Positions 1,542-37,094 of a stretch of 41,318 nucleotides of DNA are shown in pieces (position 1 is the stretch's first letter; the number at the start of each line of letters is the position of its first letter). Made by a program: the position numbers and the translations under genes. The stretch is from Folioceros fuciformis (taxonomy: Eukaryota), in contig JBNGIO010005421.1 in NCBI GenBank assembly GCA_049999805.1, positions 1 through 41,318 of the forward strand. The letters run 5' to 3'. The notes beneath the pieces are model-generated. The model was given only the letters and a program-made list of their open reading frames with translations. It was not told the origin of the DNA and did not search any database.

Positions 1542-1575
1542 GTAAGTTTTTTGCTGTTGTTTTCCTTCCCCCTAA

Positions 1576-2905: not shown

Positions 2906-3184
2906 CAATCATTGGCTACTTACTCTAGTATATTAGGATATATTAGGATATATTAGGATATATTAGGATATTGCACTCTCGCATTTAGGGCTTACCTTCT
3001 CAATAGTTGTCTAGTAAAGGCTATATCTATAGCAGGTGCTGTGCACCATATTGCTTTGTATTGTTGAGTCCATATAAGCAAGTGGTGCTATTACGTATGC
3101 CATCCATAGCCTCTGCTTGTGTCTACTAACTGTGTTCATCTTATGTGTTGCCCAAGCTCTGTTGTGTCTAAGCTGTTTCTTTCA
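2905..3184 (+). repeat. Copia 5' LTR (first ~10 nt missing), with internal (TATTAGGATA)x4
   Basis: Aligns by eye with 5941-6184 and ends AGCTGTTTCTTTCA directly before the PBS. Confidence 0.85.
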
Positions 3185-3388
3185 TGGTATCAGAGCAGGA
3201 GCACTAATCGCGAGACTTGATAAGAGAGGACGGAGTTGTGATGGCGATGGGCTCAGTAACCACTGCGGCCTTGAGGACGCGGGTGTTTGATCCATGAAGG
3301 TTCTACTGATGGCAGAGAACACATATGGCATTGCCGATGGCAAAGAGCCGAAACCCGAAGATGAGGGGAAAAAGAGCAGAGAGAATGG

Positions 3389-4420
3389 ATGCAGATAGAC
3401 CACAAGGGTACTGCTCTCCTATATATGAATCTCTCTACGGCAGTCCAGCTGAAGGTCGGAGAACCAGACAAGGGCACGGAGTACATTTGGGATCTTCTTG
3501 ATAAGAAATATGGCCAAAAGGGAGTAGGTCAAGTATTTCACTTGTTTTGTCGTGTGAGAACATTAAAGTATTCAAACGGAGACGATTTGCGAAAGCACAA
3601 CGACACCTTTCATGAACTGTTTACAACGCTAGCATCAGCTAACGAGCGCTTTGCTATCCAAGAGGACATGCAGAAGATGTTTCTACATCGTTCTATGCCC
3701 GAAGCTTGGTCAGGGTTCATAGATTTTCTAATAGCCCAAGATACTCTCATATGGGAGGAGGTTACCTTTAAGATGTTGGCGAAGGAGACTTGCCAATCAG
3801 ACGCAATGGCGGGATCTTCAACTAGTTCGGAGCATGCGGTGTTCATCAAGGGGAAGGGACGGACCAAATGGAACAAGGACAAGCAAGGGGAGTCCTCGCA
3901 GGGACAGAAGGACAAGAGAATAGTGAAGATGGAACAATGCCGGAAATGCTTCAAGTATGGTCATTATGAGAAGGATTGCAAGGATTGGAAGACCGCACAT
4001 CTCATGGAGGGTGAGAGTAAAGGTGAGGTTGCGGAGGCAACGCTCATAGAAGAAGTATCGCACGCGTGCGACAGTACACAAACGAAACGATACCTAACGA
4101 TAGATTCTGCATGTATATCCTTTATGGTAAAGGATAAGAAGCTGCTTCAAGACTATAGGAGGGAGAAGATAGTGGTGCGCCTGAGGAATGATAGCGAGAT
4201 AGGCGTGGAGGGTGTGGGGGAGTATAGGCTCAGATTGCTCAACGACGAGGTCAAGGCAATGGAAGGAGCGCTGTCTGTACCGCATCTATGTAGAAATCTC
4301 ATGTCCGTGGCATCATTGACCGATGCAAGTCTGCAGGTCCTTTTTACAAAGAAGGAAGTTTTGTTTCTGAAGAATGGACAAATGCACATGCGATGTGGTG
4401 GCAAAAGGCCACCAGTATAA
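3389..4420 (+). pseudogene. Copia gag-protease ORF remnant
   Basis: 343-aa ORF with copia gag, zinc knuckle and aspartic protease motifs (VPHLCRNLMSV). The downstream pol is disrupted. Confidence 0.85.
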
Positions 4421-5779
4421 GGAACTTATACTAGATGGAGGTTCCTAACGACCAAGAGGTTTTGACAATGTCGGAGAATGGTGGAAATGCCTTACTGTGG
4501 CATAAACGGTTTGGGCATATCAACTTGAAGTTTCTCCTGGAGATGGAGCAGAAGAAGCTTGTGACAGAAATGGAGCTCTAGAAGGTAGAACTTGGTTTTT
4601 GTGACGCTTGCATGAAAGGCAAGCACCCCCGAAGATCTTATGTTTCAATCACGTAAAGAGCAAAAGAAGTCTTGGAAATTGTCCACTTTGATCTTTGTGG
4701 ACCAATGCAAGTGGAAGCAAGGAGGATATAGGCGAAATACTATATTTCGTTTATTGATGACAGGAGAACAGCGGTGTACTTCCTGCGGAAGAAGAGTGAC
4801 GCTCTCCAAGCATTTCAGATGTTCAGGGCGACTGTGGAGAAACAAATTGAAAAGAAGTTGAAGAAACGTCGAACTAATAGGGGAGGAGAGTATTTGAGTA
4901 AACTCTTCAAGGATGAATGCACAGCGGCCAAAATTGAGAGGCAGTTGACGACAAGGTACACATCGCAATAGGCAGGGATTACCGAGCAGAAGAATTGTAC
5001 CATCTGCAATGGCGCTAGGAGTATGCTAGTGGAAAGCAGGCTGCCAAAATATTTTTGGGTAGATATAGTGGCAGCGGCAGTACAGGTACAGAATATGTTA
5101 ATTACCATGGCGCTAGGTGGCTCCACGACTCCCCATGAAGCTTGGTTTGGTGAGAAACCAAATGTTTCACACTTGAGAGTGTTTGGCTATGTAGCATATA
5201 TGCATGTTCCTAAGCAACTGCGGAAGAAGTTGGATGACAGAAGCATCAAGTGCAGCTTCATGGGTTATGCGAATGAGCGAAAGGCTTACAAATTGTGGGA
5301 TCCCGTCAGCAAGCAGATGTATGAAAGTTCTGATGTCGTGTTCGCTGAGAGCAACTTCGGAAGTCATGCGGAGAGCACGACTATTTACACGGATCTCGAC
5401 TCTGAGTTTATCCAGGACACCTTCCTTGTTCTAGATCCACCAACGATAGCAGTAGAGGATCACCACACACTGAAGGGTGATGTAAGGACATCCTAGCAGG
5501 TGAGGTCGTACCACCTATTGTTCCCATAAGAATTCTTGAAGAAGGAAACCTAGAAGGAGCACAACAACAGCAGCTAGTTAAGGAGTTAGTTCCAGATGGT
5601 CGACAAGGGTCCGACTGCCTTCGTGGAAGGCCCTTCAGAATGCCCAGCTCAACATGGTGAGCAGACGAGAATGGTGTCTTCTTCTTGAAGATGATATCCC
5701 GCTCACAATTGAGGAAGCACGAAACGGACTTGAAGATCTCATACCTCCGTATCGAGGAGATAGTGGCGGATACCTTTAG

Positions 5780-6236: not shown

Positions 6237-6246
6237 NNNNNNNNNN
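6237..6246. other. Assembly gap (10 N)
   Basis: Run of n. Confidence 1.
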
Positions 6247-7026
6247 TGCAAGGCGTTCATGCTCAGAATGTGAGGAAATTCGGTGTTGATGGAAGCAGAT
6301 ACATGCGGTTTGAGAACTGTAAAGTTTGGTTCCGGGTGCTTAATGTCAGCAGAGCAATTTTCACTTCGGTTTCGGTAGCGCGAGAGCACCCTGCTGTGTT
6401 GGATTGTCGTTTGCTTGGCAGTGCGTCTGTTTTTTCCCCTGGCAGATGGTGGCTGGGACGTCATGTAAGATCATTTCACTGGTGTCGTGTACTATCGGTG
6501 TCCCAGATCAATGTGATCCGACTCTGTGCTGTCAACTTGTGCTGAAGTGCTCTGTTGATGTCCATTCTTCGCGTCCTTAGCCCGTGGCCTGTGACGTGAG
6601 TTCCATGCACCTCTCGGAATTTGATTCCTCGTTGCAGATAGCTGGCAGTGCACTTCCTTGTCCTGTTGCTAGTGCACATTTCCCCTGGAACTATGCAAGT
6701 CTCTGGTCTAGGTTTTATGGCGTTGTTACCCTAATGCTTGAGCTGATGCTTTCTCCTGCAACGGTCAATACTTCTTCATGTAGCTGCACACGCATGTTTG
6801 GCAGGCCTTTGCCTTTTATCCTGTTCCTGAGTAGCAAAAGTTTCCTTCCCAACTCATGCCTGAACTCTTTTTGAAGCAGAGGCTTTGGTTGATGGTTGTG
6901 AACCCCTGAGCCTAGAGAGGTCATTATGTCTGGTGCAGGCAACGGTGTTTTACTCTGTTGGCATCAGCGTTGATCGGGTTCCGCTCTCGTGACTTCAGAT
7001 TGTATGGAATTCTTCCTTCCGAGGCT

Positions 7027-8770
7027 ATGGCATCACTACGAAGAGCTCTCTCGAGTCAGAACATCCCGAATGGCTCCCCCTTTGCGGTTCCCTCAGGCAC
7101 AGGTTATGGATCTGCCAGTGTTTCCCCGTCGATGAGTCCAACAGGGTTGAGCTCGCCTCCTGCTGCCGTCTCACCAGCAGAAGCGTATTTTACTAAGGTT
7201 GCAGCTCTGTCGCCTTCCTTCTTCTCATGGTTGAGGACTTATTCATGGTTTAGGACTGTAAAATTAGGAGGCCCGGATAAATCCAGATTCAAGGGAAGCA
7301 GCTTCAGAAAGTCAGTGTCTCTGGTGTTTCTTTGTTTCTTTGTGGGATTGGTTTTTGGCTTGACGCCACTGAGCTGGTATCACGCGAGACGGGAGTTTTT
7401 TCTGGAATCATTCAACAACCCTGACCTGGACGGGCCTGGTGACCCACATTTCACGACGGGAGATGAAACATCAATACACAGTAAGTCATATCGAAATCCA
7501 AGTGCTTCTAAGTGGAACATATGGTCGACTATGGGGGTAAGAAAGGAGTGGACAGTCCCTCTTAAGCCACTTATCATTGTTACTCCCACATACAACAGGC
7601 CTCTTCAGGCATATTATATGACGCGCCTAGCGCACACTCTGAAGTTGGTACCTCCTCCCCTTCTATGGATTGTTGTGGAGGAATACTGTCAGTCGGCAGA
7701 TACAGCACAGCTTTTAAGAACGACAGGCTTGATGTATCGGCATATAAGCTGTAATGCTACCACAACAGATATCAAAGACCGTGGGATATCGCAGAGAAAT
7801 GCAGCCCTTGCTCATATTGAGCAACACCAGCTTGATGGTATTGTGTACTTCGCTGACGACGACAACGTTTACACCATGGAGCTTTTTGAGCAACTGAGGG
7901 AGGTCAAGTAAGCCCCTGACGTACTGCCCTTGTGGCTATACTGCCTTGAGTCTCATTTTCTGTCATTGTAGGGGTGCCGAGCTGTACTTAGGCTCAAACA
8001 ATCCTCACAGCAAAGGGAGCTTCGGATAGGATTTCCTACCGGTGAAATCCACATGATCTAGAGTTATTTTAGTTGTTGCTGGTGGCTAGGCTGAAGAGAG
8101 CTCAAGTAATAGCTGCACCTGTTGACGCCTGTTGAGTATTGCGAGCGTGTCTGTGATGATGTTCTTCTCATGATCGCTTTGCAGGAGATTTGGAACTTGG
8201 CCCGTGGCGTTCTTGGTTCCAGGCAAAGCTAAGGCTGTGTTGGAGGGGCCTGTGTGCAAGGAACACGAAGTTATTGGATGGCATACAAATGACAAGAGCA
8301 AGAGACTTCGAAGATTCCATGTTGATATGGCTGGATTTGCCTTTAATAGCACCATACTCTGGGATCCTCAAAGGTGGGGGAGATGGATACGTGATCCCAT
8401 TCGGCAGCTGGACACGGTTAAGGAGGGATTCCAGGTACTTTACGGTCAGAGCTCGCCCGAGCTCCACATTGGATTCACCTCGAAGAGCAGAGATGACACT
8501 CCGAACGTCTCCTACTCAGTTAATTTGTGGATGACGATCTTCCATCAAATGGTGAGCCCTGATTCCTCATCGTGTTGCATCTTGCAGGAGACAACCTTCA
8601 TAGAGCAACTGGTGGAAGATGAAAGCCAGATGGAGGGCCTTCCCAGCGGATGCTCCAAGGTGATGGTCTGGCATCTACATTTTGAGACTCCAGGTCTGCC
8701 ATATCCCGCAGGCTGGGTTCTGAAAGACCATTTGCCATCCGTGATCCCTGCGTATCACCCATCTGCCTGA
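7027..8770 (+). CDS. IRX9L: GT43 beta-1,4-xylosyltransferase, IRX9/IRX9L clade (437 aa; exons 7027-7907, 8185-8434, 8588-8770)
   Basis: MASLRR start, type [62 protein letters not shown] introns keep the frame. Confidence 0.93.
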
Positions 8771-9258
8771 CGGGCTTCAGGTTGAAGACTGTAGCTCTGA
8801 TGAGAGGGGCAAAGTCAGACTCAGTTTTGCTGGCATCGACTGGCGTATGGCTCTCAATTGCTGCCATGCTTTTGCTCGTTCTTTGTCTGTACGATTACAG
8901 CTGTGCATTTAGCACCTCCTTGAGCGAGGCTCATCAGAAACGCTGGGAGAAGAGGTCGCGCTATTTGCTTCACCGACAAGCTCCACTGGAGGAAACCTGG
9001 ACAAGTTCTCGGGGGTTGCAAGCAAAAGGCTTCACACTTGGCCATATTGATTCGTTGGCCGAGGGTGTGAGTGGGCCACCAGGTGAGTGTACAAAAATTT
9101 TGCCCATGCATGAGGTACCAAAATTTAGGGATGAGAGGGAGGTGAGAGCCTTGTAATACACCATTCGCATTTTTCCTGGACTCGTAGGACTCAGGTAGAT
9201 TAGGTGTGTAGCCAGTCAGCAATAATTATACGTACTGGCCTTCACGTGCGCAACTGTA

Positions 9259-12200
9259 TCAAATGTCACATACGATACCCACCTCAATAAGCCGGTCGGC
9301 TGGGATGCCAAGCGCGAATACACCGGAGCGGCAGTTTCTCCTGAGAGCTGCGTACGCTGTGTCCAATACGAACCGGCGCAGCCAGCTGGAACCGGGAGCT
9401 GCCTGTATTTCGGATCGGCCGACAACATGGACTATACCCCGCTCCCGCGCGGAGCGGAGGCAGCTCAGTTCCAAGCCGACGGGTCCTGTCCCCTGGTCCC
9501 CGCCCACCCCCGTGTCCACCTGAAGGAAACGGGTCCCCGAGCCCCGGCGGTGGGTGACCGGGTTTGGGCTTGGTTCCGGTTCTGGCGAAGGGAGTGGGCG
9601 GGGAACAGGAGGCGGTCCCGACAGCAGCAACACCTCGAGCCCCTGTATGACGAGGTCCTCAAGAGCCCTCCCCCGCACGTGCGTGTCAGTGTAGCCATAG
9701 CGCAGCACGCATTGATAGCAATTGCGGACGGGCAGGCGGCGCAGCAGCAGGCGCTCCCCCGGTAGCACGCTGGTGACAGGAACAGGCTTCACGCACACGA
9801 ACACCAAAACCTGGTGGATGGCCGGTAGGCTGCGCAGGAAGTGTGTGAAAGTGGGAGGGACTGAGCTCACCAGTTGGCTGTAGAAGAAGGCTATCCCGGG
9901 CAACGCCACCTGCGACTGTGCGGCACCCACATCTCCAGCCACCGCGTCCATGGCGGCCGTACGCGCACCGTCGTATTTTCGCTTGCTGTCTGACCCGTAG
10001 TGCCAGACGTACATTACAGCGAGCAGGACGCCGCCCAGGAGGAGCGGCACCCATCCCCCTCCTGGCACCTTCACCAGCGCCGAGCTCAGGTACACGGCCT
10101 CCCCGCATCCGAACACTGCCACGAAGAGAGCCGCGCAGAAGGGGTGCCACACCCACACAACCACCATCACCAGCGCCACCAGCAGGCTGGTGATGAGCAT
10201 CACCGACACCACCGCGATGCCTGCACCGACACAGCTGCCCCTATCACGTGACCACGCTGTCTCTCTCTCCTCACGTGCTCACGTGAGGCTGGGAGCCCCC
10301 CCTTCCCTCATCGCGTGACCCTGGGAGCCCCCCCCTCTTCTCTCATCGAGTGACCCCATCTCGTGATGACTGCCTATTTTATACACATGTGTGCTACAGT
10401 GCAGTGCAGTACATGTTTGCTCCCCTGCTCCGCGTGTTTGCAGCATGCTGGGTTGTCCGTCCGCATTTGCCCACAGATGTCGCCTGAGGGGGCGAGACGC
10501 ACATCGAGGAAGGAGGACGGCAAGGTGCGGTGCGCAGGGAGGGGGGGAGGACGAGAGCACGGGACCAGGCAGAAAGCACGTACCGTATGCGTGGCCCAGG
10601 GCGTTGGCGGAGCGGAAGCCCGCGACGACGGCGATGGAGAGCAGCATGAGCATGTAGTTCACCTCGGGAATGTAGATCTGGCCCGGCACGGTCTTGGATG
10701 TGTGGATGATTTTGACGCGGGGGAAGCAGCCCAGCGCCATGGTCTGCTTGATGACGGAGAAGGCGCCGGAGATCATGGCCTGGCTGGCCACGATGGTGGC
10801 CAGAGTGGCCATCACCAGAGTGGGCCAGTACATGGCCTTGGGCACGGCTTTGTAGAAGGCCGCCGCCACGTTCTCGGGGTGGATGCTCAGGTACGCGGCC
10901 TGTCCGAAGTAGGCCAGGATCAAGCTCGGGTATACTACACCTGTGAAGGCCATCTGCACACGAGCAGAGCAGCAGCATCGATGTTTAGGGTTTATGGGTT
11001 AGGGTTAGGGTTAGGGTTGCGGAGTTAGAGCAGAGCTCACCTGGATGGATGTCTTGGAGAAGTGGCCTAGGTCGGCGAACATGGCCTCCGTGCCTGTGAT
11101 GCACAGCACCACGCCGCCGAGCTCCGTCCACCCCTGCTTCTTCTTCTTGAGGAAGAATTTGATGGCGTGGTGCGGGCCTACGGCTCGGAAGATGCTGGGT
11201 TGGTACTTGGCGATGTTGTAGGTGCCCAGGGAGCCGATGAGGAGCAGCCAGGTGACGACGATGGGGGCGAAGAGGAAGCCTACTTTGTCTGTGCCCTTGC
11301 TTTGGAGCAGGAAGAGGGCCAGGAGGATGGCGCATGTTATGAGCACCACCGTGTCTGCATGGGGGGAGGAGAGGACGGGTGGTGTCACGTACATGAGTGA
11401 GTAGCTTGATCATCATTTCTGCATCGTCAGGAAGGAGGGCTTCGTGTTACAGGGGGGCAGGAGGTGGGCATACTCTTGCCCAGATGTGGAGCTTGCACTT
11501 GGATTCCTTCCACGGCGGAGAGAACTGCGCGCACAGCAACCACGCAGCCAGGCAGAGGAGTGGTGATTTGAGTGAGTCAGGTGGTTGCAGTACATGTCAA
11601 GCGTTTGGAGAGAGAGAGACACAGGGCTGCTGCATAATGTCACGCAATGTTTAATGGAAGCCAAGGGGGAACGGGGAACTCACCAGAGATGGCTGGAGTG
11701 AGAATGCCGTCTCCTACTACCATGGAGCTTCCCAGCATGACGAACAGTAGCAACGCTTTCTTCAACACTTTGCTCTTCTCCAGTAGTAATCTGACCTTGG
11801 GAGTTGCGCCTACGGAGCGCCTGCGGCTGTAGTTTGCCAGCTGCGTGTCGGAGGTGTGCTGCGAGGCGAGAAGGCTGCATCTGGCATGCCTGCAGAGCAA
11901 AGTATACAATGCAGCAGTTCCTCCTGTTAAAGCAGGAGCACGAACGAGGCTGCTATCAGCAGCCTGAAAGAGGAAGCCCGAAGGTGTTAGTTTTGGGGGT
12001 GGCGTCGAGCAAGATGCTAGGTCTGCAAGGGCAGGATAGAGTTCTCACCTTCGCCGTTGTCGTCGGCGTTTAGGACGATGAAGACGTACTTGAGCAGACC
12101 GATCAGCGTGAGAGTCCAGAAGATGAGTGACATGGCGCCCAGTACCTCCACCCTCTCAACGGCAGTGTCTGCGAATGTGGATGAGAAGACGTAAAGTGGG

Positions 12201-12426
12201 GACGTTCCCAAGTCTCCGTAGATTACTCCCATGCTCTGATAAGCAAGCAGCAGGACCCTGTATTTCGAAGCTTCAGTCTGCAAGACAAGGACTTGCACCG
12301 TGAGAGACACAGGGCTGTCTTGGTGGTTGCACCCGACGAAAACATTCTGTGGCAACCCCAGTCTCCAGTTGTTCTGCCACCTACCTCGCTGAGAGTGACT
12401 GTCTGTGCTACGCTCTCCAACTCCAT
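9259..12426 (-). CDS. HAK: KUP/HAK/KT potassium transporter (exons 12426-12385, 12277-12049, 11923-11684, 11524-11474, 11354-11041, 10953-10584, 10220-9259)
   Basis: [59 protein letters not shown], and C-terminal LIEVGI. The start codon is uncertain because the frame stays open upstream. Confidence 0.95.
10983..11018 (+). repeat. Short telomere-like tract (TTTAGGG, then TTAGGG x3) in a KUP intron
   Basis: GTTTAGGGTTTATGGGTTAGGGTTAGGGTTAGGGTT read directly. Confidence 0.85.
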
Positions 12427-13381
12427 TTCCGGAGGAATCTTTTGGAGCTCCGACGTCTCAGCACTGTTCAGTTTCGCACAGCAAAGTCAGACCCACCTTA
12501 ATGCAACCGAAAGACTTCATATGACAACAAGTTCACCAGGTATGTCCAGAGTTGAATCTCCACCTCCATGAAATACTCGACCTTCCCTTCTCCACCGACC
12601 CATTCTCCAGGCTGTCAATGTGCTCATCATCTTGTGTGTCAACTTGGTCCATGTCACCCCAACCAACCAGTTTCTGAACTCGGAAACTCAACTCTATGGG
12701 GGAGCTTCCGTGTGTCGCATCAAGCTATCGGCCATGGCACCTGATCTGTATGTACTCCAAGCGGCACCTCAGTGCAACCATCTCCACGAACAGTCTTGTC
12801 ATTTCCACCGCATCATCTTCCAGACACATCACAAAGAAGCCCCACGGGGTCGAAGAGGGAACGCCGCGCTGGTTGCAGTTCCACCCAAGTCCAGTTCTCT
12901 TGCACTCCAGCCTGCCACAACAAGCGAACTTTTCACCCCCATGCATCCTCCTTCCAGCCCAATTGCTTCCCCGGTTACAGATCCAGAGACGGGGGAGAGC
13001 CATTGTCTCAAACCCTAGAGCTGGGCACCGGGAGTTGGCATGAAGATGGGAATCGGACTGACCCAATCCGTCCAGAATCCAGCCAACCGCAAGACACCAG
13101 AACTGTTGGATCACAGCCAACTGTCAGGCGGTCTAGCCGGGTAAAGCCAGCCTCACTACGGCCGACACCAGCGGCGGTTATCCCTGTCCCCGGCCCCGGA
13201 ACCTGCAAGTACAGTAACCTGCCCGTCTCCTTGGGGGCCGCATCTCTGCTAGAAAATGTAAGAAGACTGGAAGTGTCAAGATAAAAGAAAGTAAGGTGTC
13301 GGTGTGTACTCAATTCTGTTTTTCGTAGAAGCTTCCGTGAAGCCGAAAGTGAGTTGGAGCTCGTGTTGAAGCTTTTTGGCG

Positions 13382-14260
13382 ATGGCGGGAGGGGTTGTTC
13401 TAGGCCCTGTGACGCTCGCCGCCGCCGCCTGCCCGGCGCCTTGCGTAAGGGAACGCACCCGGCCAGGCCGTTCGCGATGGCATTGCCGAGCGGCAGTGCC
13501 GTCAGAAGAGGGGGGAAACGACGCAATGACGGATGTAGGTCTGGACGATGTCTTCAGCTTGATTGCGCAAGCACAGGAGGCATTCCCTGATGGACGGCCG
13601 CCTGAGGAGCTGGTGGCGGCGGACTTGACAGCAACTTCCACGAAGCTGCGGCGGGCTTCCACTCCGGCCTCCCGTTGGTACAGCGTCTATGGCCGTTCCG
13701 TGCCTCCGTCGCAGGACGCGCGCTCTGTCTTCTACGGTCCTCGCAGGCCGAAATGGCCTGGCCCAATCCCAGCTTACCTGCGCGGGGAGTTTCCGGGAGA
13801 TTACGGCATGGATCCGCTCGGCCTGGCCCGAGACCCTGCCACATTCAAGCAGCTGAGAGGGAAGGAAGTCATGAACGGCCGCTGGGCCATGCTCGGGGTG
13901 GTAGGGTGCCTGTTGCCGGAGATTCTGCAGCCTGGTGACGGCGGGGTTTGGTTCATTGCTGCCAGGGAGCATTTTGCGAGTCATCCTGGTGTGCTGGAAG
14001 TGGGATTGATTTTGTTTCTGGTAGCTTCTGAGCTTGCGAGAGCCGTGGGGATTGAGGGCTTGAACGGGATTCATCCGGGTGGCAAGGCTTTCGATCCGTT
14101 AGGGTTCGGGATCGAGGATGAATCTAATGCAGAGCTTAAGACGAAGGAGATAGAGAATGGGAGACTAGCAATGTCCGCCATGGCTGGCCTGTTTGCACAG
14201 GCTCTTGTCACTGAAGTCGGGCCTATCCAAAACTTGATAGGAATTTTGCAGCGCAGTTAG
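13382..14260 (+). CDS. Divergent chlorophyll a/b-binding (LHC, Lhcb-like) protein, single exon
   Basis: Transit-peptide-like N-terminus; FYGPRRPKW, YLRGEFPGDYGMDPLGL, EVMNGRWAMLG, HPGGKAFDPLG, LKTKEIENGRLAM, Q...T..GPIQNL. Confidence 0.9.
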   Translation: MAGGVVLGPVTLAAAACPAPCVRERTRPGRSRWHCRAAVPSEEGGNDAMTDVGLDDVFSLIAQAQEAFPDGRPPEELVAADLTATSTKLRRASTPASRWYSVYGRSVPPSQDARSVFYGPRRPKWPGPIPAYLRGEFPGDYGMDPLGLARDPATFKQLRGKEVMNGRWAMLGVVGCLLPEILQPGDGGVWFIAAREHFASHPGVLEVGLILFLVASELARAVGIEGLNGIHPGGKAFDPLGFGIEDESNAELKTKEIENGRLAMSAMAGLFAQALVTEVGPIQNLIGILQRS

Positions 14261-14569: not shown

Positions 14570-15700
14570 AGAGGCACACAAACATCACAGAATTAGGTGC
14601 AGCCATCTCTGCTCACATAGCACTGAACAATCGCAGGGTTTCCTGGCCTATGCCCTGGTGGAAGAACCCTGCTATCATGACATCGCAGTTCACGTTACCA
14701 ATTCCTTCCCACAAAGTCCATGGAGGATTCGCTGGGCAACTTCCAAGCTCCCGCTCTTTGCATACATGTCCACCAAGCCCTACAGACAAACAAATCTGGC
14801 TCAACGCCACTGGCCACACATCTGCATGCACCTGTTGCCCAGTTTCCAAAGTTTAATCCCCTTGCACAAGCTCGAACGGCCGCCACAAACACATGACCAT
14901 CTGGCTTTACGTTGAGCCCCAGCATCCGATGATACAGCTGTATGCCTGCTTCTCTTCTCCATACTTCACATACGCAGAAATGGTGGAAGACTACATGAAG
15001 CCATCAGGTACAGCTACCTACCATTGCAAACACATTAAATTTGTGATGAATACACTCGCAGGATGTGATTGCACAGGGAAGTATTCGACTAGCACCCGAT
15101 ACTCACCTTGAAAGCATGGACTCTGCGACCTAAAACAATATCCCTCTTCATCACAAATTTTCCTCAACACCATGAAAGACAGATCTCGAAATATAACGCC
15201 CTCCTCCCTATTTGCACCATATCACCCAAAGCCTTAGCAGCTTCTATCACACGGCCCCGCTCACAAAGCCTGCTTACAGTTTCAGCAGGCACGCCAATTG
15301 CATACCCTGCAGACCTAATCCTGCGAGCATGGGTCGCCATATTCCAGCTTCTGGCCACTGCCCCGAACTGGCTTTCCTGCAAAGGTGCTGCAACTCGTAG
15401 CTTCCGCGTTTGCCTTCAGCTGGTTCCTGGACATCATAGTCACGAGAGAGGAAGAAATTAAGTCAGTATCTGTTAATCCACCAGGTTCTTCGGTCCAGGG
15501 ATAGATAAAGCCGTTCCCTCGGAGGATCCAGCTGTACTTGAGCGCCTTGTGCGTGACTCGAGACGTTTTCAGTCCGAGGGATTTGCTCTCCGGTGCGGTG
15601 GGGTCTTGTTTTGCATCCCAGCAACCCGACTGCTGCAGGGATCTCAAGCCAAAGCAGCTGCAGCTAGCATTGGATCCCCAGTGCCTTACATATGCTGCAG
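14570..15700 (-). pseudogene. PLS-type PPR pseudogene with degenerate N-terminal OSB-like PDF motifs
   Basis: Frameshifted fragments DRRTWWINR, AETVSRLCERGRVIEAAKAL, NHILRVY, VKPDGHVFVAAVRAC, VHAD, LVDMYAK. Paralogous to 23945-24980. Confidence 0.75.
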
Positions 15701-15869
15701 TGAACTGGTGAAATTCAAGATGCGTCTTCCGCACTGGTTAGCGACGTGAGCAGATGAAATATTGCAGTTCCCACGGCCGATTGTCTTAAGCTGCACAAGG
15801 CATGCTTTGCTGTTTGGCTGGTGTACAGCCTGCGTAGCGGGAGGCATGCAGGACTGTCCTGTAAAGGTC

Positions 15870-16440
15870 TTGGATTGAGTGGTCAGCAGGGACAAAAACT
15901 TGGTTAAAATCCGACCTCTGTCTAGCTGTCCTCCATCTCTGCCTTTTTCTATACTGACTATCATTGCAAGACCTTGCCGGTGAGTTGCTTTCACCCTTTC
16001 GTTCGTTCCTTCCCTGACTTCAGTAGACGCGGTCGCTGTGAATGACTTTGGACATGATGGTTCCTTCCCTGAGGTTCTCCACACACAGTACTGAGGCAAA
16101 AGTTTTCTAAGCTGCTGCTTCCACCTTTCCTTCCCTCCCCACTTGTCACCTGAGGACAGAACATGACTGTTGCTACACTGCACCTTGCAGGAGAGATGCC
16201 TTCCTTCACATGGAAGGTGGGTCTATGGACCGTAGGATCCCACCACCTGAGTTCTGCTCAGCTCAGCTTGGCTCCCAGCCCATTCATCGTCATCCCTTCC
16301 TTTGGACCTTTTTCCTCTGAAATAGACTGCCCGTCTGGGTTGCTTCAAATCCCACATTGTACGTACCTCGAAAATATACATCATGCCTGCCAAAGCGAAA
16401 AAAGTCAGATTGCGTATTCGAATCAGAAACAGTCTGTATG
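15870..16440 (-). pseudogene. Decayed paralog of the ROCO-caspase gene (COR end to caspase N-terminus); may extend to ~17230
   Basis: NERVKATHRQGLAMIVSIEKGRDGGQLDRGRI matches NERAKAGHRRGLAMIVSMEDHRHGGQVDRGRL of the intact gene. Weaker matches: IRNLTFFALAGM vs ARNLIRFNYDGM, and GGILRS vs EGIIRT. Confidence 0.8.
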
Positions 16441-18041: not shown

Positions 18042-21000
18042 TTAAGACCAGTATAGCTTTCCAGTGAGTGAGCTGACGAACTGGGGACACTGCACGTTCT
18101 GCATTTCGGTGACGTCGCGAGTCACTCTTGTTAGAATGCTCATCACATCTTCGGTACGAGAGTGGTCAATGATGGCTCTCACGAAAGCTACGATGAAGTT
18201 TGTGCCTTCCTCCACATTTCTGAAGGATAAATCTCCAGGACTAGTAGAGAAGACGGTGAGAATATCTTTCGCCTGATACAAGGGTCGAGTTCTCTTGTTG
18301 AGACCCTGCCTTCCCTCAACCTCTGACCCCTTGCCTTTGCTGGTAGTGGCAAGGTCGGCGGGGCCCGACCCCTGTGCTTTCATGCTTTTGACAAGACGGC
18401 CAGTTCCTCGACAAGCATTTATGACAACCACCTTAGGCTTGTGCGCCAAATACTTGCATTCAGCGATGGGCTTCAAAATATCTTCTTCAACATTAAGCTT
18501 CTCCGCATTGTCTGGTTCACCTGAGAAAACATACTGCCTTCCGTCTTCATCAGTCCCACCATGGGCGTTCACGCAAAACAGAAAGCAGTCGTCTTCTGCT
18601 AGGTGCGGGACCCTGAGAACGGCTTTCAACCTTGATTTCCCTTCCTTAGGACCGTTCACAACGATATCTATATCAAAATTCAACATCTGGAAGAGAGCTT
18701 CAAGTCGCCCTCTGTCTACCTGTCCTCCATGTCTGTGGTCTTCCATGCTGACAATCATTGCAAGCCCTCTCCGGTGACCTGCTTTCGCCCTTTCGTTTGG
18801 ATATGAATGTTCCTTCCCTAACTTCAGTATGGGCGGTACCTGTGGCTGACTTGTTCCAGCTGAAGGGCCACTCGTTGCGTCGAGGGACGGACGTGGCCCA
18901 CACTGCTGCAAAGCAGACTGCACCTCTTCGCTACTTAACAGATCCCTGGCTTTCTCGTACACAAGGGATAGACCAGCTTCAGGCATTTCTGGCCAGCACC
19001 ATTGATAATCGGAGCAATCCGAGCCGGAGGAAGTCTGCTCTGCATGGCTTTTGTGATGATGTAGAAAGCAATTAATCAAATGCTGGTTGAGAACCGATTG
19101 ACTGTGTCGGTGAATACAGAGTGTGAGCTTCTCCACACACTCAGTCCTGATGATCCCTTCTACTAGTTCAACTCCAGGACTACCTTCAGGAGAGGCACAA
19201 AATGCTCTCAGTTCCGCAACAATACTCTGCTGGAGAAACTGGATCGTTTCGTCTTTGCTCTTGAGTGACCTCATCAAAATGTCCACACGATCCCCAATGT
19301 CCCCGGTCTCGTCCCGAATATCCCCATTGCTCTCCAAAAACACGTCCATACCATCGTAGTTAAATCTGATCAAGTTACGCGCAATGCTATACTGATGAGA
19401 CTGCATACCGCAGAGCGCATCGAACAAGATCTGTCGTAACTTGACCTGCAATGCACAAGCAATGGCCATGTCATAAAACGCAAGAGAGGTTGTATGACTA
19501 ACAAAAGAGACAGCTCAGACGGCAACGTACCTGGAATCTTGGAAAGCAGCCTGGACCGAGAAATGTCTTTGTTTCATCTCGGCATTGTAGCCGCCTGCCT
19601 ACGTAATTGTACTTGGACGCCGCACCACTTTTCCAGTCCAACTGTCGTTTCCCTTGAAGAGCTTTACCTTCGGCGTCATCCAAGGTGAAGGGAACGAAAA
19701 ATCCAGGCCTTGGATTCGCATCATCTCGATAGCACAAGTTTAGTCTCATCATCAATGATACCAAATCTTCAACACGAATCCTGTCGGCCACGTGGGTGTC
19801 CTTGAGGATCCGGGCCAAGGTGTCGTTGAGGAGGTCTTCAGCAACAAATCCACGGTCTCGCGATCTCCCCAAGGAAGGCTGTCCGGCTAGGCGCTCAATG
19901 AGATGGCCCAGGAACGAATGACTGATCCAGTGTGGATTTACCACCACAGCATCTGCATCTGCATCTGCATCTTGGAACCAGATGACCCGGCCTGCATTGT
20001 GCAGATAGGCAAGAATTGCTTGAAGGCGTTGCTCATCATCTTCTTCAACAACCTTTTTGCATCTCTCCTTGGTCACCAGAGGCTGACCTGGATTTTGAGA
20101 TACCCAGTGAGTCAAAGCAGCACTCAATCGATTGCACGCCTTCGGAACCCAAAACAGAGGAAGCGCAAACAGCTCTCGAAAAGATTGGAATAGCTCCTCC
20201 AGCAAAGGCTGCGCAGTCTGTTTAGATCGAGCATCCATGAAGAAAGGCGCTGTCCTGATAAGAAGTACCTCCTTGAAAGTCTTGGCCAAGTCTTCCACGA
20301 CTGGTTGCAGCAGACCAACCAGTAATTTGGCGTCCAGATCCTCCATCCGATCCTTATGAGTGACAACCACAAACACCCGAGGCAAACAGGAACCCACGTT
20401 GCGAGAATTGGAGTGGATGAATCTTAGCCAAAACTTGAAGCCGTTTCTGAACTTGTCCAGCAGCATTTCATCGGACGGAAGGGGTTCACCAGGCTTGTGG
20501 GCATCAAGTGGGTTATATGTGAACAGGAAGACACATGTCTGGTTGAAGCTGGGGAACAAGTAGTCTTGCAGAGCTCGGTAGTGAGCTTGTCCAGCCAGAT
20601 CCCAAATGGTAACTTCCATCTCGTCGTCGTTGCGCAGCACCTCGATTTCTATGCCTTCCGTTCTGGGGACAGTTCCCACCACCTGGTTGGATGATGCGGC
20701 TCCTATGAGTGAAACATCACCGAACCAGGAACCATTCCAAGCTAGAGACATTTGTTCCCACAATTGGACTTGGTTGGCGGATGCGGCGGCTCCTGTAACT
20801 GAAACATCGCCGAACCAGGAACCATTCCAAGCTAGAGACAGTTGTTCCCACAATTGGACTCGCTTGGCTGATGCGGCTCCTGTACAATGTGATGTGTGTG
20901 GTTGCGATGCGCGCCATGCGGTGATCATGGTGTTTCGGAGAGTGGTCTTCCCTGCGTAAGGTGCACCGCACAGGAAAAGGCGGCCGACCCTGGGCTTCAC

Positions 21001-22338
21001 AGCCTCTTGCCCCTCCAAAAGCAAAGGCCAGTAGGTCCTGTGACTAACATTGCGTGCCAACGTCGCGTTGATGATGGCCTGCTTTCCCTCTTCCTCCCAG
21101 TTTGTGAAGTCTACGTCGATCTTCTGTAAAGTGGTGTTGACCTGGAGGGACTGCATCAACTCTCTGAACAGCTCATCGTCGAGTCCCCAGCAAGACTGAA
21201 AGCTGAGCTTATTCAAAGATGTATTTTTCTCCAAAGACTGCACCAACGCTTCCATGAAAGAGGGCTCGTTTATCTCGAAGAAACTCAGGATGCGTAATGA
21301 TTTGCATTTCAGAAACGACATCGAAAATTCACTTAACAACTCGTCACCGTAATAGTCGTACAACGTAAGTGTGGAGAGGGTGGAGTTGTGGCGCCAGGCG
21401 TCCAGGCCGAACTTGACAACAAAACAGCTGATCGTAAGGTCCGTGATGCAATCGTTGGTGCGCAACATTCCGGCCAGCGCGTCGGCCAGGCCTGGCTCCT
21501 CTTTGTTCCCGATACGCAACGTCAGCTTGGTGACCCCAGATATGGGGGCATCAGCCTCAGCATCAGCACGGGTGAAAGCCAGTTTCAACACAGTGCTCAT
21601 GGGCCCCAGGCTGCCCTGTACGGAACCCCTAACTGCATCACGTTCATCCCGATTGCCATCATCCAAGTAAAGCTCCCGGAGCGAGGCACACAGCGGCAAT
21701 GCCTTTGCAATACACTGGGCTCCCGCCTCATCCACGCGGATGCCCCGCAGATCCAGGACATTGAGACGGGGAGCGGTGGCCAGCATGCGAGCCATGTGCT
21801 GTGCCCCTTCACCATCTCCCACACTGTTCCGGCTTATGTCCAAATACTCCAGGACAGAATCCTGGTTGAAGCCATCGACCAGGGCACCAAGTCCAGCGGC
21901 ATCAAGCCTGATCACGCTTGCCTTCAGCTGTCGCAAGCTGCGACTAGAAGCAATAAGCTGGCCCAGGGCCTTGCAACCCGCCAGCCTTCCAAAACCTTCG
22001 CAATCATCCAGATCAAGAGCTTCAAGGGAAGGGTTGGATGCCAGGCCCTCCAACAGAACCGCGCATTCATCCTCCCGACCGATGCCGGTTTCCCACCGTT
22101 CAGATATCTTCAGGCGGCCGCGGAGACTGCGGCACTGGCCAATAGCTGTCAATACCCGCTTGCGCACTCGCCAGTGCCTGCCATCCGTGCTCGTTGAAGC
22201 TCCCTTTCTGAAGAAATCGCCGTACTCCTTGTTGTGCAATTCGGGGAGTTTGGTCAAGGCGGGCCCTTCCAGATCTTCCAGCAGCTGTTGCAGCTTTTCC
22301 GGCAACTCGCGCCAGTCATAGTCCTCCTGCTCCGCCAT
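18042..22338 (-). CDS. LRR-ROC-COR (TORNADO1-like ROCO) protein fused to a C-terminal caspase-type peptidase C14 domain; 1403 aa; exons 22338-19531 and 19445-18042
   Basis: RI-like LRRs; P-loop GAPYAGKTT, RTEGIEI, IWDLAGQ, VVTHKD; COR (LAYLHNAGRVIWF, VVVNPHW, FFVP, GRRLQC, FPRFQ|VKL). An 85-nt phase-0 GT-AG intron joins the two ORFs. Protease motifs DCFLFCVNAHGG and KPKVVVINACRG, and small-subunit motifs FSTSPGDLSFRN, GTNFI, QCPQFVSSL. Confidence 0.92.
20690..20885 (-). repeat. In-frame 90-nt (30-aa) tandem duplication inside the ROC domain
   Basis: VQLWEQLSLAWNGSWFGDVS and VQLWEQMSLAWNGSWFGDVS; GAAACATC(A/G)CCGAACCAGGA occurs at 20711 and 20801. Confidence 0.93.
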
Positions 22339-22419
22339 GCTGTGCTAAGCTGCGCTTCCCAATGCAAGCAAATATGATGAATGGAAAGTATGTATCATCC
22401 GTTTTGTAGCAGGGGCAGC

Positions 22420-23394: not shown

Positions 23395-23920
23395 CTACTC
23401 ACTATAGCCAGGCATGACAGGAGTCGGGGGTGGTCGAGACCAGTACAGCGTTTTGGTAAGTGTGCTGCGCAACTCAGGACACTGATATTTCTTCTCATAG
23501 TCCCCGTCTTTGGTTTTGTCTTGGACCTCCTTGTCCGTCGCCTTGCCAATGACGCTTGTCTGAATGCTCAAGACATCTTCTGTTTCAGAGCCCTTCACTA
23601 TGGCGTCCATCAAAGCTATGATGAAGTTTGTGCCCTCCTCGACATCTCTCAAAGATGCATCTCCAGGACTGGTGGAGAAAACTGTGAGGCAGTCTTTCAC
23701 ACAAGACAATAGTCGCACTCTGTTTCTGACAACTTGGCTTCCCTGAACGTCTGACCCCTCGGCTTTGCTGGTAATGGCAAGGTCGGCGGGGCCCGACCCC
23801 TTTGCTTGGCTTCCCTCAACCTGACACCTCGGCTTTGCTGGTAGTGGCAGGGTTGGCAGTGCTTGACTCCTACGCTTTCATGCTTTTGACAAGACGCCCA
23901 GTGCCTCGACAAGCATTGGG
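23395..23920 (-). pseudogene. Caspase-domain paralog fragment (NACRG, linker, small subunit)
   Basis: NACRGTGRLVKSMKA* followed by a partly duplicated linker and KDCLTVFSTSPGDASLRDVEEGTNFII...QCPELRSTLTKTLYWS. The His-bearing half is absent. Confidence 0.88.
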
Positions 23921-23944
23921 TTGGGTTGGGTCCTTCAAGTCGGC

Positions 23945-24980
23945 CTTTATACTGTACCAAGGTGCCACACTTTGCATACATGTCCACCAAGCAATTACAA
24001 ACTAACAAATCAGGCTCAAGCCCACTGGCCAAGATATCAGCATGCACCTGCTTCCCCTTGCACAGGCCTGAAATGCTGCCACAAACAGATGACCATCTGG
24101 CTTCACACTGGACCTGCGCATCCGTTGATATAGCTGCACGGCCTGCTTTGCTTTGTCTTGTCCATGTCTAACATGTGCAGAGATTATGGAAGACCAGATG
24201 AAGGCATTTGGTTCAGCAACCATGGTGAACACATCCATCGCGTCTTGCAACCTGCCAAACTAAGCATACATTCGCAGAATGTGATTGCTCAGGAACGTGT
24301 CCGACTGATACCCCTTGTCCATCGTCAAACCATGCACCGGACCGACGACCCAGAACAAGAGTCTTCTTCAACACACATTACTTAAGTACAGTAAAAAACT
24401 GAGACTTGGGTACACAGGAGTCTGTCTGCACCAGAACTTCCAGAGCCTCAGCAGCCTCAGTGAGCAGGCCCTCATGATATAGCTTGCTCACAGTTTCAGC
24501 CATCACAATCCTGCAGGCCTGAGATTGTCCCGACCGTCGGGCAAGCTAGGTTTGGGCTCAGAGACCTCACGACCCATATCCACATCCCAAGCAGCAAGCT
24601 TCGACTTCACCCAGGCTGGCTTGTAGAGGTGGTGCAGCCAGATCCCCTCATGGGATTCTCTGTACTTGAAGTCAGGCAAGCGCTTACTTTTCTTGGCATG
24701 CCTGTTATCCCACCACAGTGTTGGGTCCCGAAAGAACTGTCCCCACAATAGCTCCTGCTGACGAACCTGGCGGGCAGCTCCGCCTTTATCCACCCATCCT
24801 GTTCGATGAGCTGCCTGCCCGGCTGAAGGCCCCCATCTTTTGGCTGGTTCGGGTGGCTAAGCTCGCCTCCTTGAAGTCAATTGCGAGGGAGCCCTTCCAA
24901 AAGTGCCTGCTGATTTCGGCACAGCCATGGGGCCGCGTTACGCTTACGATTCCGAGAGACATTGATCCGTGGTTACGCAA
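23945..24980 (-). pseudogene. PPR pseudogene with N-terminal OSB-type PDF motif
   Basis: LLWGQFFRDPTLWWDNRHAKKSKRLPDFKYRESHEGIWL...PAWV, then PLS repeats (DAMDVF...PNAFIWSSIISAH, VKPDGHLFVAAFQAC, LVDMYAKCG), with stops and frameshifts. Confidence 0.85.
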
Positions 24981-33299: not shown

Positions 33300-33900
33300 A
33301 GGGTACTAACCTAACAACCTAAAGCACCAAGAGACCTGGGAACCTTTTCAAAAGCCAAACCTCGAAACCTAAAACCAGAAGACCAACCTCGAAACCTAAA
33401 ACACCAAAAGACCAACCTCGAAACCTAAAGCACCAATGACCAATCTGGCAACCTAAAACACCAAGAGACCAACCTAGCAAAATCAAGAGACTAACCTAGC
33501 NNNNNNNNNNTAAAACACCAAGAGACCAACCTAGCAAAATCAAGAGACTAACCTAGCAAATTAAAACACCAAGAGACCAACCTGGAAACTCAAAACACCA
33601 AGAGACCAACCTGGAAACCCAAAACACCAAGAGACCAGCCTAGCAACCCTAGCTACACCAAGAGATCAACCTAATAACCCTAGCTACAGCAATAGACCAA
33701 CCTAGCAACCTGAAACAAAAAGAGACCAACCTAGCAACCTCAAACGCCAAGACAACAAGAAACCAACCTAGCAACCTTAAACACCAAGAGACCAACCTAG
33801 CAGCCTCAAACACCAAGAGACCACCCTAGGACACAAAGAAACTATCCTAACAACTTAAAACGCCAAGAGACCACCCTAGGACACAAAGAGGCCAACCTTA
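33300..33900. repeat. ~29-30 bp satellite (AAAACACCAAGAGACCAACCTAGCAACCT), with a 10-N gap at 33501-33510
   Basis: Read directly; the true array length is unknown because of the gap. Confidence 0.92.
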
Positions 33901-35239: not shown

Positions 35240-35869
35240 ATGGCCACCACCAGCAACAGCAGGCTTGTGTCTTGCACTGGCTGCTTGACTCCTATGGACG
35301 CTGGCAGGTCTGCACCAAGCCAACGGATCCTGCTACAACGGCAAGGGAGACCTCATATTCACCAAGTACTGGGTCGTAAGGGATTGTTCCAGGACGAACG
35401 AGACGGACGAGGACGATTATCACCCTGAGTGGACCCAAAACTAAGGCGATCGTCGGGGGAGACGGCAAGACCATCGTCAGGGTGGATGTCAATACCTACG
35501 GCAAGCGTGTGGAGGAAGGAACGTGCCTTCTCAGCAATGGGGACCTCATCAACGCGGGCAGCGCGTCGGACGTGTTTGAGATCCTTGACAGGTCCAATTA
35601 CCCTTTCGGACAATGCGCGTTCTCAAACGCGCTGGTGCCGTATGTGAGTGTGGCCACCGTCGATCTCCCCCTCACCAAGCTCTATGTTCGGGAGCTGCAT
35701 AATGTGAGACTTCGCAATGGAAAAATCCACAGCGGATGCGTCCGGGTGCAGTTGCCACATCGATTTCTTCGTCAAGTTCTTCACACACTACAAGGCACTG
35801 GATGACGTTCTGCCTGACACCGCCCATTCCGTGATCGAGCCTGATTGCCACATCCTCTCCTACACTTGA
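35240..35869 (+). pseudogene. Stand-alone secreted 3D/MltA-like domain gene, frameshifted
   Basis: SCYNGKGDLIFTKYWV...LSGPKTKAIVGGDGKTI...EEGTCLLSNGDLIN...YPFG...NALVPYVSVA...LYVRELHNVRLRNGKIHSGCVRV (deletion and frameshift) SCHIDFFV...CHILSYT*. Colinear with the RLK ectodomain; TATAAA at ~35131. Confidence 0.85.
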
Positions 35870-36346: not shown

Positions 36347-37094
36347 ATCTCTCTCCATATCGACAGAGCCCCATTGATCAGTGGAGCATGATGTGTGACG
36401 ATGATTATAGGATGATGTACGACGATTTAATTCAAGCAGGTTCATGGAGAAATATTTCCTCATGCTTCATAACTTGCGCCGTTCCGCGTGCTTGCACTGC
36501 CACAACTGTGTGCTGCTCATAGGCTGGATCCTCGAGGACGCCATTTAGCAGGGAAGTATTAGACTGTCTGTGCAGCATCCTCGGCTAGGTCACCGGCAAG
36601 ATATCTATGTACGTGTACGTAGCAGGGAAACCTTTATATGTATATCAGACTGGAGTCCGAGCAGCTCGATGTGACAGCACCGCAGACACGATAGAACTGG
36701 TACCTATCTACAGTTGACGAGCAGTAGCTTGAAAGGCGTGTTAAGCATGAGCTAAGACGAGTACTGTACTTCTCTGTTTCCTTAAGATGGTGCACCTGGT
36801 TCTAATGCTCCGTTGGATTGTGGGCTTGGCGGGTCGATTCTGCTGTTGCTTACCCCTTGAAGACGATGCTCAATCTGATCAGTGGTACTCTTAGACCCTT
36901 GGCTGTGTACATCAAAGCAGCGACTGATGGTTACGTGCTGGCAGCAGCCACTCAGAGGTGTGGATGTCTCTGGCCGTCATCCTTTGACCATCAGAATTAT
37001 CTTCAAGACTGGATGTCTGCTGGATGTACCGGGCCTCAAGGCTGTAACTGCTCGATGTATTCTGGGTTCCTGAGACCGCCAATTTGCATCCAGG

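Follow-up and report, generated by a model that had tools for sequence, protein, structure and literature searches.

Gene Structure and Domain Order

The DNA analyzed here (the window) comprises positions 1 to 41,318 of contig JBNGIO010005421.1 from Folioceros fuciformis (assembly GCA_049999805.1). On its minus strand, at 18042-22338, lies a gene whose product carries, in this order, RNI-like leucine-rich repeats (LRR), a Roc GTPase domain, a COR domain and a caspase-type protease domain, the latter forming the C-terminus after a ~1150-residue LRR-Roc-COR module. In this ROCO-caspase gene, two exons encoding 1403 residues, with the ATG at 22336-22338 and the stop codon at 18042-18044, were derived from computed open reading frames (ORFs), splice sites and spliced length. 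A frame of 490 codons (18042-19514) is preceded by one of 948 codons (19498-22344), and both are linked into the single product by an 85-nt GT..AG intron of phase 0, read from the sequence, at 19446-19530 of the minus strand. Exon 1 (19531-22338, minus; 936 residues) encodes the LRR, Roc, COR-A and the start of a COR-B-like region, and exon 2 (18045-19445, minus; 467 residues) the COR-B-like region, a linker and the caspase domain. The 1403-codon reading frame is uninterrupted across this clean intron. We regard it as very probable that the locus is a genuine gene of a plant, coding for a ROCO protein with a caspase-type domain.

The RNI-like repeats occupy 21079-22137 (minus; about residues 68-420; Pfam LRR_6 and LRR_14, both under cut-off), and about residues 68-300 matched the ribonuclease inhibitor and the NOD2 LRR in a PDB sequence search. 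The Roc domain (20239-20991, minus; Pfam E 9.6e-07, 29.5 bits, cut-off 27) retains the G1, G3 and G4 motifs intact, namely the P-loop GAPYAGKT (residues 458-465), DLAGQ (580-584) and THKD (660-663). It is directly followed by COR, matched as COR-A at 19690-20082 (minus; Pfam E 1.6e-09, 38.2 bits, cut-off 35.3), which is the arrangement that defines ROCO proteins. A 90-bp tandem duplication that keeps the reading frame (20689-20877, minus; 2.1 copies, 89% match) adds a repeated 30-residue segment to Roc, between the P-loop and DxxGQ.

The nearest clusters of the ROCO part in a protein-language-model search (Atlas) were Streptophyta 'Tornado 1' clusters of 871-1376 amino acids (scores 0.98 and 0.95), a likeness that denotes language-model similarity to these clusters and not orthology to angiosperm TORNADO1 (TRN1). 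The ROCO-caspase gene thus encodes an LRR-Roc-COR protein of TORNADO1 type, to which a caspase domain was added, or in which it was retained, C-terminally.

Residues and Motifs of the Caspase-Type Domain

The minus strand at 18045-18800 translates without stop codons into 252 residues (P0001), in which the motifs DHRHGGQVD, DCFLFCVNAHGG, KPKVVVINACRG, DILTVFSTSPGDLSFRN, GTNFI, LTRV and QCPQFVSSLTGKLYWS occur. A previous reading of this DNA from its letters only (the sequence-only reading) had quoted these motifs and placed the catalytic His and Cys codons, and all of them were recovered in this translation. Pfam Peptidase_C14 was matched end to end (profile 1-233 of 233) with an E-value of 1.1e-27 and 97.6 bits (cut-off 21.4), and therefore the observation is real and no chance pattern. 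Its envelope, 18051-18770 (minus), covers a p20-like and a p10-like part.

By translation and alignment, the catalytic His1231 lies in NAHGG (18561-18563, minus), and the segment Asn1279-Ala-Cys1281 of INACRG at 18411-18419 (minus; Cys codon 18411-18413). NAHGG and INACRG form the caspase dyad, with the pentapeptide starting with Asn (codon 18417-18419) instead of Gln. Alignment to caspases placed Arg1174 (18732-18734, minus) and Arg1345 (18219-18221, minus) at S1-pocket positions, which we take to be those of caspase R179 and R341, with Asn1279 presumably at that of Q283. In HMMER alignments to caspase-8 and Dronc, both Arg stand opposite the Arg of the 'RNG' and 'SYRN/THRD' segments, and the columns of R23, H80, C130 and R194 (domain numbering) were at least 90% conserved among 120 aligned caspase-type sequences.

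Between the p20-like and p10-like parts, an inter-subunit linker (18267-18404, minus; domain residues 133-178) is predicted to be disordered, with a predicted local distance difference test score (pLDDT) below 50 at 139-160. It holds a single Asp (SGPAD/L) plus a Glu in SEVE/G. A Pfam scan of the gene product detected no death-fold (CARD/DED) domain, the upstream part being LRR-Roc-COR.

Assignment to the Caspase Type

To place the domain within family C14, sequence searches, profiles and aligned columns were compared. In a PDB sequence search, the best 60 of the 211 matches at E≤1 were all caspases, CED-3, Dronc or engineered caspases, among them Dronc (6.5e-14) and caspase-8 (1.2e-10). An exhaustive HMMER search among 1.84 billion cluster representatives yielded 1161 matches at E≤1e-3, 66 of them at E≤1e-10, and the best showed 38-42% identity. 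Thirty of the best 150 matches were looked up and 13 carried an organism name: nine animals (mite, cricket, mussels, coral, flatworm, snail, hemichordate and fly), four bryophytes (Marchantia polymorpha, M. paleacea and, twice, Nothoceros) and no bacteria.

As an outgroup we employed bacterial metacaspase-like C14 genes picked by a DNA pattern coding for the FDSCHSG motif. The pattern was present in 120 bacterial stretches (L017-L136), 91 of which held it within long ORFs and were used as metacaspase-like C14 domains; all 10 that were checked were Peptidase_C14. The window domain scored 164.6 bits on a profile of 125 animal-type sequences, from which the plant family was left out, vs. 5.2 bits on the 91-sequence bacterial profile, a contrast that is inflated since the animal-type set was picked by likeness to the query. 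With phmmer (E≤1e-3), the window domain matched 125/125 animal-type and 0/91 bacterial domains.

The pocket columns gave a similar profile. At R179, Arg was found in 18/18 plant-family rows and 122/125 animal-type rows, and Leu in 10/10 bacterial rows. At Q283, 16 of the 18 plant-family rows have Asn, which is also present in 16/125 animal-type rows (Gln in 100/125), the bacterial rows having Asp (10/10). At R341, Arg was found in 16/18 plant-family and 121/125 animal-type rows, and Asp or Glu in 10/10 bacterial rows. Hence, instead of the acidic S1 pocket and the D[AS]CHSG-type motif of metacaspases, the window domain displays Arg/Asn/Arg. Sequence searches, profile scores and trees, in which C14B was represented by bacterial domains, placed it closer to C14A than to C14B, and we conclude that the domain is of the caspase type (C14A-like), neither of metacaspase nor of paracaspase type. 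The Arg at both S1-equivalent positions and the Asn at Q283, both proposed in the sequence-only reading, were confirmed by the aligned columns, and its claim of a true-caspase rather than a metacaspase signature was borne out by searches, profiles, fold and trees.

Predicted Fold and Homodimer

The AlphaFold2 (AF2) model of the domain (pLDDT 86.8; predicted template modeling score 0.84), built from an alignment dominated by animal caspases, shows the caspase/hemoglobinase fold, with the p20 part followed by the p10 part and the linker between them. Caspase-9 was the best match in a search of structure representatives (VIA Z 28.0, root-mean-square deviation 2.6, 208 residues aligned), this being one of the caspases on which the sequence-only reading had proposed to overlay such a model, followed by 4jj7 (27.9) and 4pry (27.4). 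Caspase-4, CED-3 and Dronc reached 23-24, c-FLIP 22.6 and MALT1 22.4 and 20.0, and lower values were obtained for AtMC4 (19.5), AtMC9 (19.2), legumain (18.4), Yca1 (15.9) and TbMCA2 (13.5). Among the matches listed by Foldseek, only caspases were present.

A homodimer model scored 0.63, compared to 0.02 for the best of three controls. The mark for this score is reached by 21/30 solved one-chain pairs and 0/23 single chains in the microbial set, and by 17/29 pairs (1/7 of those without an older solved relative) and 0/30 single chains in the eukaryotic set. The runs share at least 51% of contacts, the pLDDT of the partner is at least 74, and the predicted interface consists of residues 238-248 and helix 218-231, with residue 242 as its center of symmetry, and resembles the beta6 interface of caspases. 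As solved caspase dimers exist, which the model may simply reproduce, this result is to be taken as a likeness only.

The Plant Family and Paralogs in the Window

Relatives of the window domain were found in Marchantia polymorpha (PTQ31690.1, Mp6g00860 and Mp6g00900), M. paleacea (KAG6554914.1), Riccia fluitans and R. sorocarpa, and among Nothoceros transcripts. Several of them carry the automatic UniProt label 'Caspase family p20 domain-containing protein'. A word-indexed search with the family profile returned Riccia proteins only, and one with the window domain alone gave no match in the near length range. According to Pfam, the liverwort relatives (P0009, P0030 and P0161-P0165; Marchantia and Riccia) have two to three alpha/beta-hydrolase domains (Abhydrolase_6, DUF676 or PGAP1-like) upstream of the caspase domain. 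Bryophyte NLRs, too, begin with domains of the alpha/beta-hydrolase class.

Two unnamed Logan proteins, P0004 and P0011, share the N-terminal region of exon 2 plus the caspase domain, and therefore the ROCO-caspase form is present on other contigs. Further, between 919 and 1412 short contigs from three runs with the same organism label showed 90-100% likeness to the 6.9 kb around the gene. Two paralogous fragments also lie within the window. The one at 23437-23917 (minus) comprises a linker and a p10-like part with 52% identity (tblastn; Pfam Peptidase_C14 E 2.9e-08, profile 146-233 only) and is probably a pseudogene piece. The other, at 15896-16003 (minus), corresponds to the N-terminal part of p20, with 67% identity over 36 residues. 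These abundant contigs and the two fragments indicate a family that is multi-copy and turning over; the ROCO-caspase family is multi-copy and fast-diverging.

The p10-like fragment adjoins a fragment of a PLS-type PPR gene (…LVDMYAKCG…) at 23395-24167 (minus), a region that has the appearance of a pseudogene formed as a chimera, or of a scar left by rearrangement. Word depth over 23868-24300 was 887-4951 in runs X1-X3, compared to about 100-400 over most of the rest, and therefore this is high-copy sequence. The p20 fragment belongs to the ORF at 15686-16222 (minus), which resembles the caspase domain at its start (…GLAMIVSIEKGRDGGQLDRGR…) but not beyond, being a truncated paralog downstream of the gene.

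The dyad is lost in 4/18 family rows: Cys is replaced by Gly in P0011 and by Ser in P0163, and His by Tyr in P0014 and P0105. These four rows mostly keep the pocket Arg. Judging from their residues, the dyad-less members may be pseudo-proteases or regulators of the c-FLIP kind.

Phylogenetic Position

Three quick trees with bacterial C14 as the outgroup and Shimodaira-Hasegawa-like approximate likelihood ratio test (SH-aLRT) support were computed: one with 153 rows under LG+G4, and two with 61 rows under LG+C20 and LG+G4. Eighteen partial domains, including hornwort sequences and P0003, and 12 near-identical cluster members were left out. In all three trees, bacterial C14 stood apart from a group made up of caspases and the plant family (SH-aLRT 100). 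With regard to the position that the sequence-only reading had proposed to settle by a C14 phylogeny, the grouping with caspases and the split from bacterial metacaspase-like C14 stood, and plant metacaspases, like paracaspases, entered the comparison through structures only.

The plant family formed one clade in the 153-row tree (support 90) and in the 61-row LG+G4 tree (84), and a basal polytomy in the 61-row LG+C20 tree. In the 153-row tree, the plant clade was nested inside animal caspases with weak support (SH-aLRT 80-90), and in the 61-row trees the plant lineages were basal, 34 of the 36 other caspases forming their own clade, again weakly (SH-aLRT 83). Since the deep nodes are weak, these trees do not choose between an ancient and a transferred origin.

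Comparison with Known Systems

Animal caspases (C14A: caspase-9, -8, -3, Dronc and CED-3) resemble the window domain in fold (Z 23-28), in the order of p20 and p10 with a disordered linker, in the xHG/xACRG dyad motifs and in both S1 Arg, and show the best sequence and profile likeness; the homodimer predicted by modeling is, as a likeness only, of their beta6 kind. They differ in that the window domain is at most about 33% identical to them and has Asn for Gln283, and in that their N-terminal parts are CARD, DED or a short prodomain, whereas here LRR-Roc-COR precedes the domain in a plant host. Metacaspases and paracaspases (C14B) have in common with it the clan CD fold and the His-Cys dyad, but their S1 pocket is acidic and their motif of the DxCHSG type, in contrast to the basic residues and NACRG observed here, and their structural and profile scores are much lower. 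The bryophyte p20 proteins belong to the same domain family, form one clade with it and have the same pocket residues; however, identity is 29-42%, the liverwort ones combine the domain with alpha/beta-hydrolases without Roc or COR, and they have automatic names only.

With regard to the ROCO part, TRN1 shows the same succession of RNI-like LRR, Roc and COR and is of about the same length (clusters of 1373-1376 amino acids vs. 1403). The passages of PMC4104024 and PMC11378527 dealing with plant ROCO proteins describe them as LRR-Roc-COR only, encoded by one or two genes per plant, and TRN1, with one or two copies per plant, without an effector domain. In contrast, the gene described here is multi-copy and has a caspase domain after COR.

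A further parallel in architecture comes from prokaryotes. The account of AP-GTPase conflict proteins by Kaur, Burroughs, Iyer and Aravind (2021; PMC8195603), in the parts dealing with their domain composition, gives LRR, Roc and COR followed by a variable C-terminal effector, caspase included. The sensor-switch-effector logic, the domain order and the use of a caspase-superfamily peptidase as effector are thus alike, the differences being that these proteins are bacterial, whereas the window gene bears an intron, lies among plant genes and has a TRN1-like ROCO part. Nine bacterial proteins with a C-terminal metacaspase-like C14 domain were scanned, and Roc or COR was found in none of them; one (L104) has upstream PKD and PPC domains.

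For the DEVDase and YVADase caspase-like activities observed when plant cells die, unrelated proteases are held responsible. In line with the statement of the sequence-only reading that plants are held to have only metacaspases, recent reviews still confine caspases to animals and deny plant genomes any caspase orthologs (PMC5756287, 10.1101/2023.04.28.538660, PMC13272413). Textbooks, too, credit plants with metacaspases but not with orthologs of caspases. In the full-text literature, outside which most subscription journals and supplements lie, we found no published account of bryophyte caspase-type domains or of a plant ROCO-caspase, and the word 'caspase' was absent from the bryophyte genome and immunity papers that were text-searched. 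The parts are of known kinds; what appears to be new is that plants have a caspase-type domain and that it is fused to a ROCO protein of TORNADO1 type.

Proposed Mechanism and Alternative Explanations

We propose that the product is a plant ROCO-caspase that would be activated by dimerization and would cut after acidic residues, an explanation to which, as a whole, we assign a probability of about 0.6. The LRRs would sense a ligand or a perturbation, and the Roc-COR module would switch in a nucleotide-dependent manner and dimerize, thereby pairing two caspase domains for proximity-induced activation via the last beta-strand, as in initiator caspases. The active protease would cut after Asp, and perhaps also after Glu, presumably starting with its own linker (candidate site SGPAD/L) and proceeding to cellular substrates, and the output might be cell death or an immune response. 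The proposal draws on two analogies, namely the caspase-superfamily peptidases in the effector position of bacterial LRR-AP-GTPase-COR proteins (PMC8195603) and the alpha/beta-hydrolase N-termini of bryophyte NLRs, which cause death resembling the hypersensitive response (PMC11218826). For the part that the protein works as an acid-specific protease activated by dimerization, taken separately, we see a little less than an even chance.

Several observations weigh against this explanation. The preference for Asp or Glu is suggested by three residues, one of which, at the Gln283 position, is Asn, and the immune or cell-death role by analogy alone. The loss of the dyad in some members indicates that non-catalytic roles exist in the family. 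COR-B had no Pfam match in the two exon pieces, which were scanned separately, and the N-terminal half was poor (pLDDT 30-74) in an AF2 model of the whole exon 2. Given the caspase-rich alignment, the AF2 model of the domain is biased to the caspase fold and not fully independent of the sequence evidence; likewise, the set of 125 animal-type sequences had been assembled from the best matches to the window domain, and the comparison with plant metacaspases and paracaspases was made on structures, outside the trees. As to splicing, one read contig of run X3, a run whose kind was guessed to be RNA, skips exactly the 85-nt intron (n = 1), and no joint across it was among those listed for runs X1 and X2; the X3 joint is a weak hint, as the contig has at least 90% likeness and may stem from a paralog.

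The explanations that deny a caspase in this plant fare worst. If an animal caspase had been wrongly joined to plant DNA during assembly or by contamination, the two 10-N gaps in the window and the shortness of the overlying contigs could be taken as signs of it. However, the caspase domain and the COR-side region lie within one open exon, plant genes stand on either side with gap-free sequence up to the ROCO-caspase gene, the stretch is present in three runs that bear one organism label, and Marchantia and Riccia assemblies of chromosome scale encode relatives. The host is a plant, as the sequence-only reading had assumed, the same contig encoding a GT43 glycosyltransferase, a KUP/HAK transporter, a chlorophyll a/b-binding protein, a receptor-kinase fragment and an alpha/beta-hydrolase; these flanking genes and the relatives in the liverwort assemblies exclude contamination, and an artefact of this kind is extremely improbable. 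Hardly more credible is an Arg/Lys-specific enzyme of the metacaspase or paracaspase kind with a superficial caspase likeness. Plants are known to have metacaspases, the clan CD fold is common to all these enzymes and MALT1 still reaches a Z of 22.4; against this stand the Arg/Asn/Arg pocket vs. Leu/Asp/Asp-Glu in bacterial metacaspase-like domains, the absence of the DxCHSG motif, the 5.2 bits on the metacaspase-like profile vs. 164.6 on the caspase one (inflated as stated above), the Z values of 13.5-19.5 for AtMC4, AtMC9, Yca1 and TbMCA2 vs. 28 for caspases, and the SH-aLRT of 100 for the split from bacterial C14. The contamination and metacaspase readings were rejected on plant context and on pocket, profile, structure and tree evidence, respectively. 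A protein that serves as a scaffold without catalysis, a pseudo-protease, or a copy in decay within an expanded family, in each case with inherited caspase-like residues that have gone out of use, would be in keeping with the 4/18 rows that lack His or Cys, with the two truncated paralog fragments 2-5 kb away, with the 90-bp duplication inside Roc and with the fact that, among the runs listed for the stretch, none is on record as RNA. Nevertheless, the 1403-codon frame runs uninterrupted across a clean intron, the duplication is in frame, and no GTPase motif, dyad residue or pocket Arg has been lost; moreover, the pocket Arg persist in 16-18 of the 18 family rows at 30-40% overall identity, which argues for selection on the pocket. 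We consider a silent protein or a decaying gene improbable.

The remaining alternative concerns origin. A caspase-type domain may have reached an ancestor of these plants from an animal or an unsampled microbe and been joined there to ROCO and hydrolase genes of the host, in which case it would not go back to a caspase older than the split between plants and animals. Named members are patchily distributed, only in liverworts and a hornwort, every named non-plant neighbor is an animal, the 153-row tree weakly nests the plant clade inside animal caspases, and the ROCO half is like native plant TORNADO1, so the two halves may have different histories. On the other hand, identity to any animal caspase is at most 33%, the plant lineages are basal, weakly, in the 61-row outgroup-rooted trees, and no donor lineage stands out. 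Nor was a bacterial relative found in a limited pattern scan of GTDB with one genome per species, in which a narrow KPK..NAC pattern gave 14 pattern matches and 0 confirmed, weak evidence of absence. A tblastn search against plasmids gave no match, and a metagenome scan returned 16 short loci, most with 22-37% identity and one with 53% over 32 residues. Horizontal transfer is a possible origin that we hold to be rather unlikely. An equally tentative standing is given to the broadest form of the ROCO-caspase explanation, in which non-seed land plants would have retained, or anciently acquired, a true acid-specific caspase lineage wired to intracellular sensors, with ROCO dimerization executing cell death; we doubt that it holds in this full form.

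Implications

The family makes it testable whether any plant lineage has an Asp-directed C14 protease, all the more as the genetically tractable Marchantia carries relatives, and an acid-specific plant caspase lineage, if true, would overturn the animal-only rule for caspases. It also bears on when caspases arose and on whether they moved between kingdoms. In the ROCO-caspase fusion, a putative sensor, switch and executioner would be combined on one polypeptide, paralleling bacterial AP-GTPase proteins and the animal NLR/apoptosome-caspase pathways, and a possible function is thereby suggested for the poorly understood plant ROCO (TORNADO1) lineage. If an acid-specific plant caspase lineage of this kind were real, the unexplained C-terminal region of canonical TORNADO1 might be a degenerate caspase domain. 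In liverworts, the sensor would in turn consist of the alpha/beta-hydrolase modules that are also used by bryophyte NLRs, whose N-terminal alpha/beta-hydrolase domains trigger hypersensitive response-like death in Nicotiana, as stated in the part of PMC11218826 that deals with them.

Other Features of the Window

A run of plant genes extends over 6916-14260, with the GT43 glycosyltransferase on the plus strand, the KUP/HAK potassium transporter on the minus strand (GC up to 0.60) and the chlorophyll a/b-binding protein on the plus strand. The two 10-N assembly gaps lie at 6237-6246 and 33501-33510, neither near the ROCO-caspase gene. Two paralogous ORFs on the plus strand, at 35380-35805 and 37074-37871, had no Pfam match at E≤0.001 and have a common C-terminal segment (…NGxLINxG…FxFLD+xNYPFG…NxLVPxVSV…H.GCVRV). 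By eye, PLS-type PPR fragments and retroelement ORFs were recognized on the contig, and the ORFs at 2066-5496 resemble pieces of retrotransposon gag, integrase and chromodomain.

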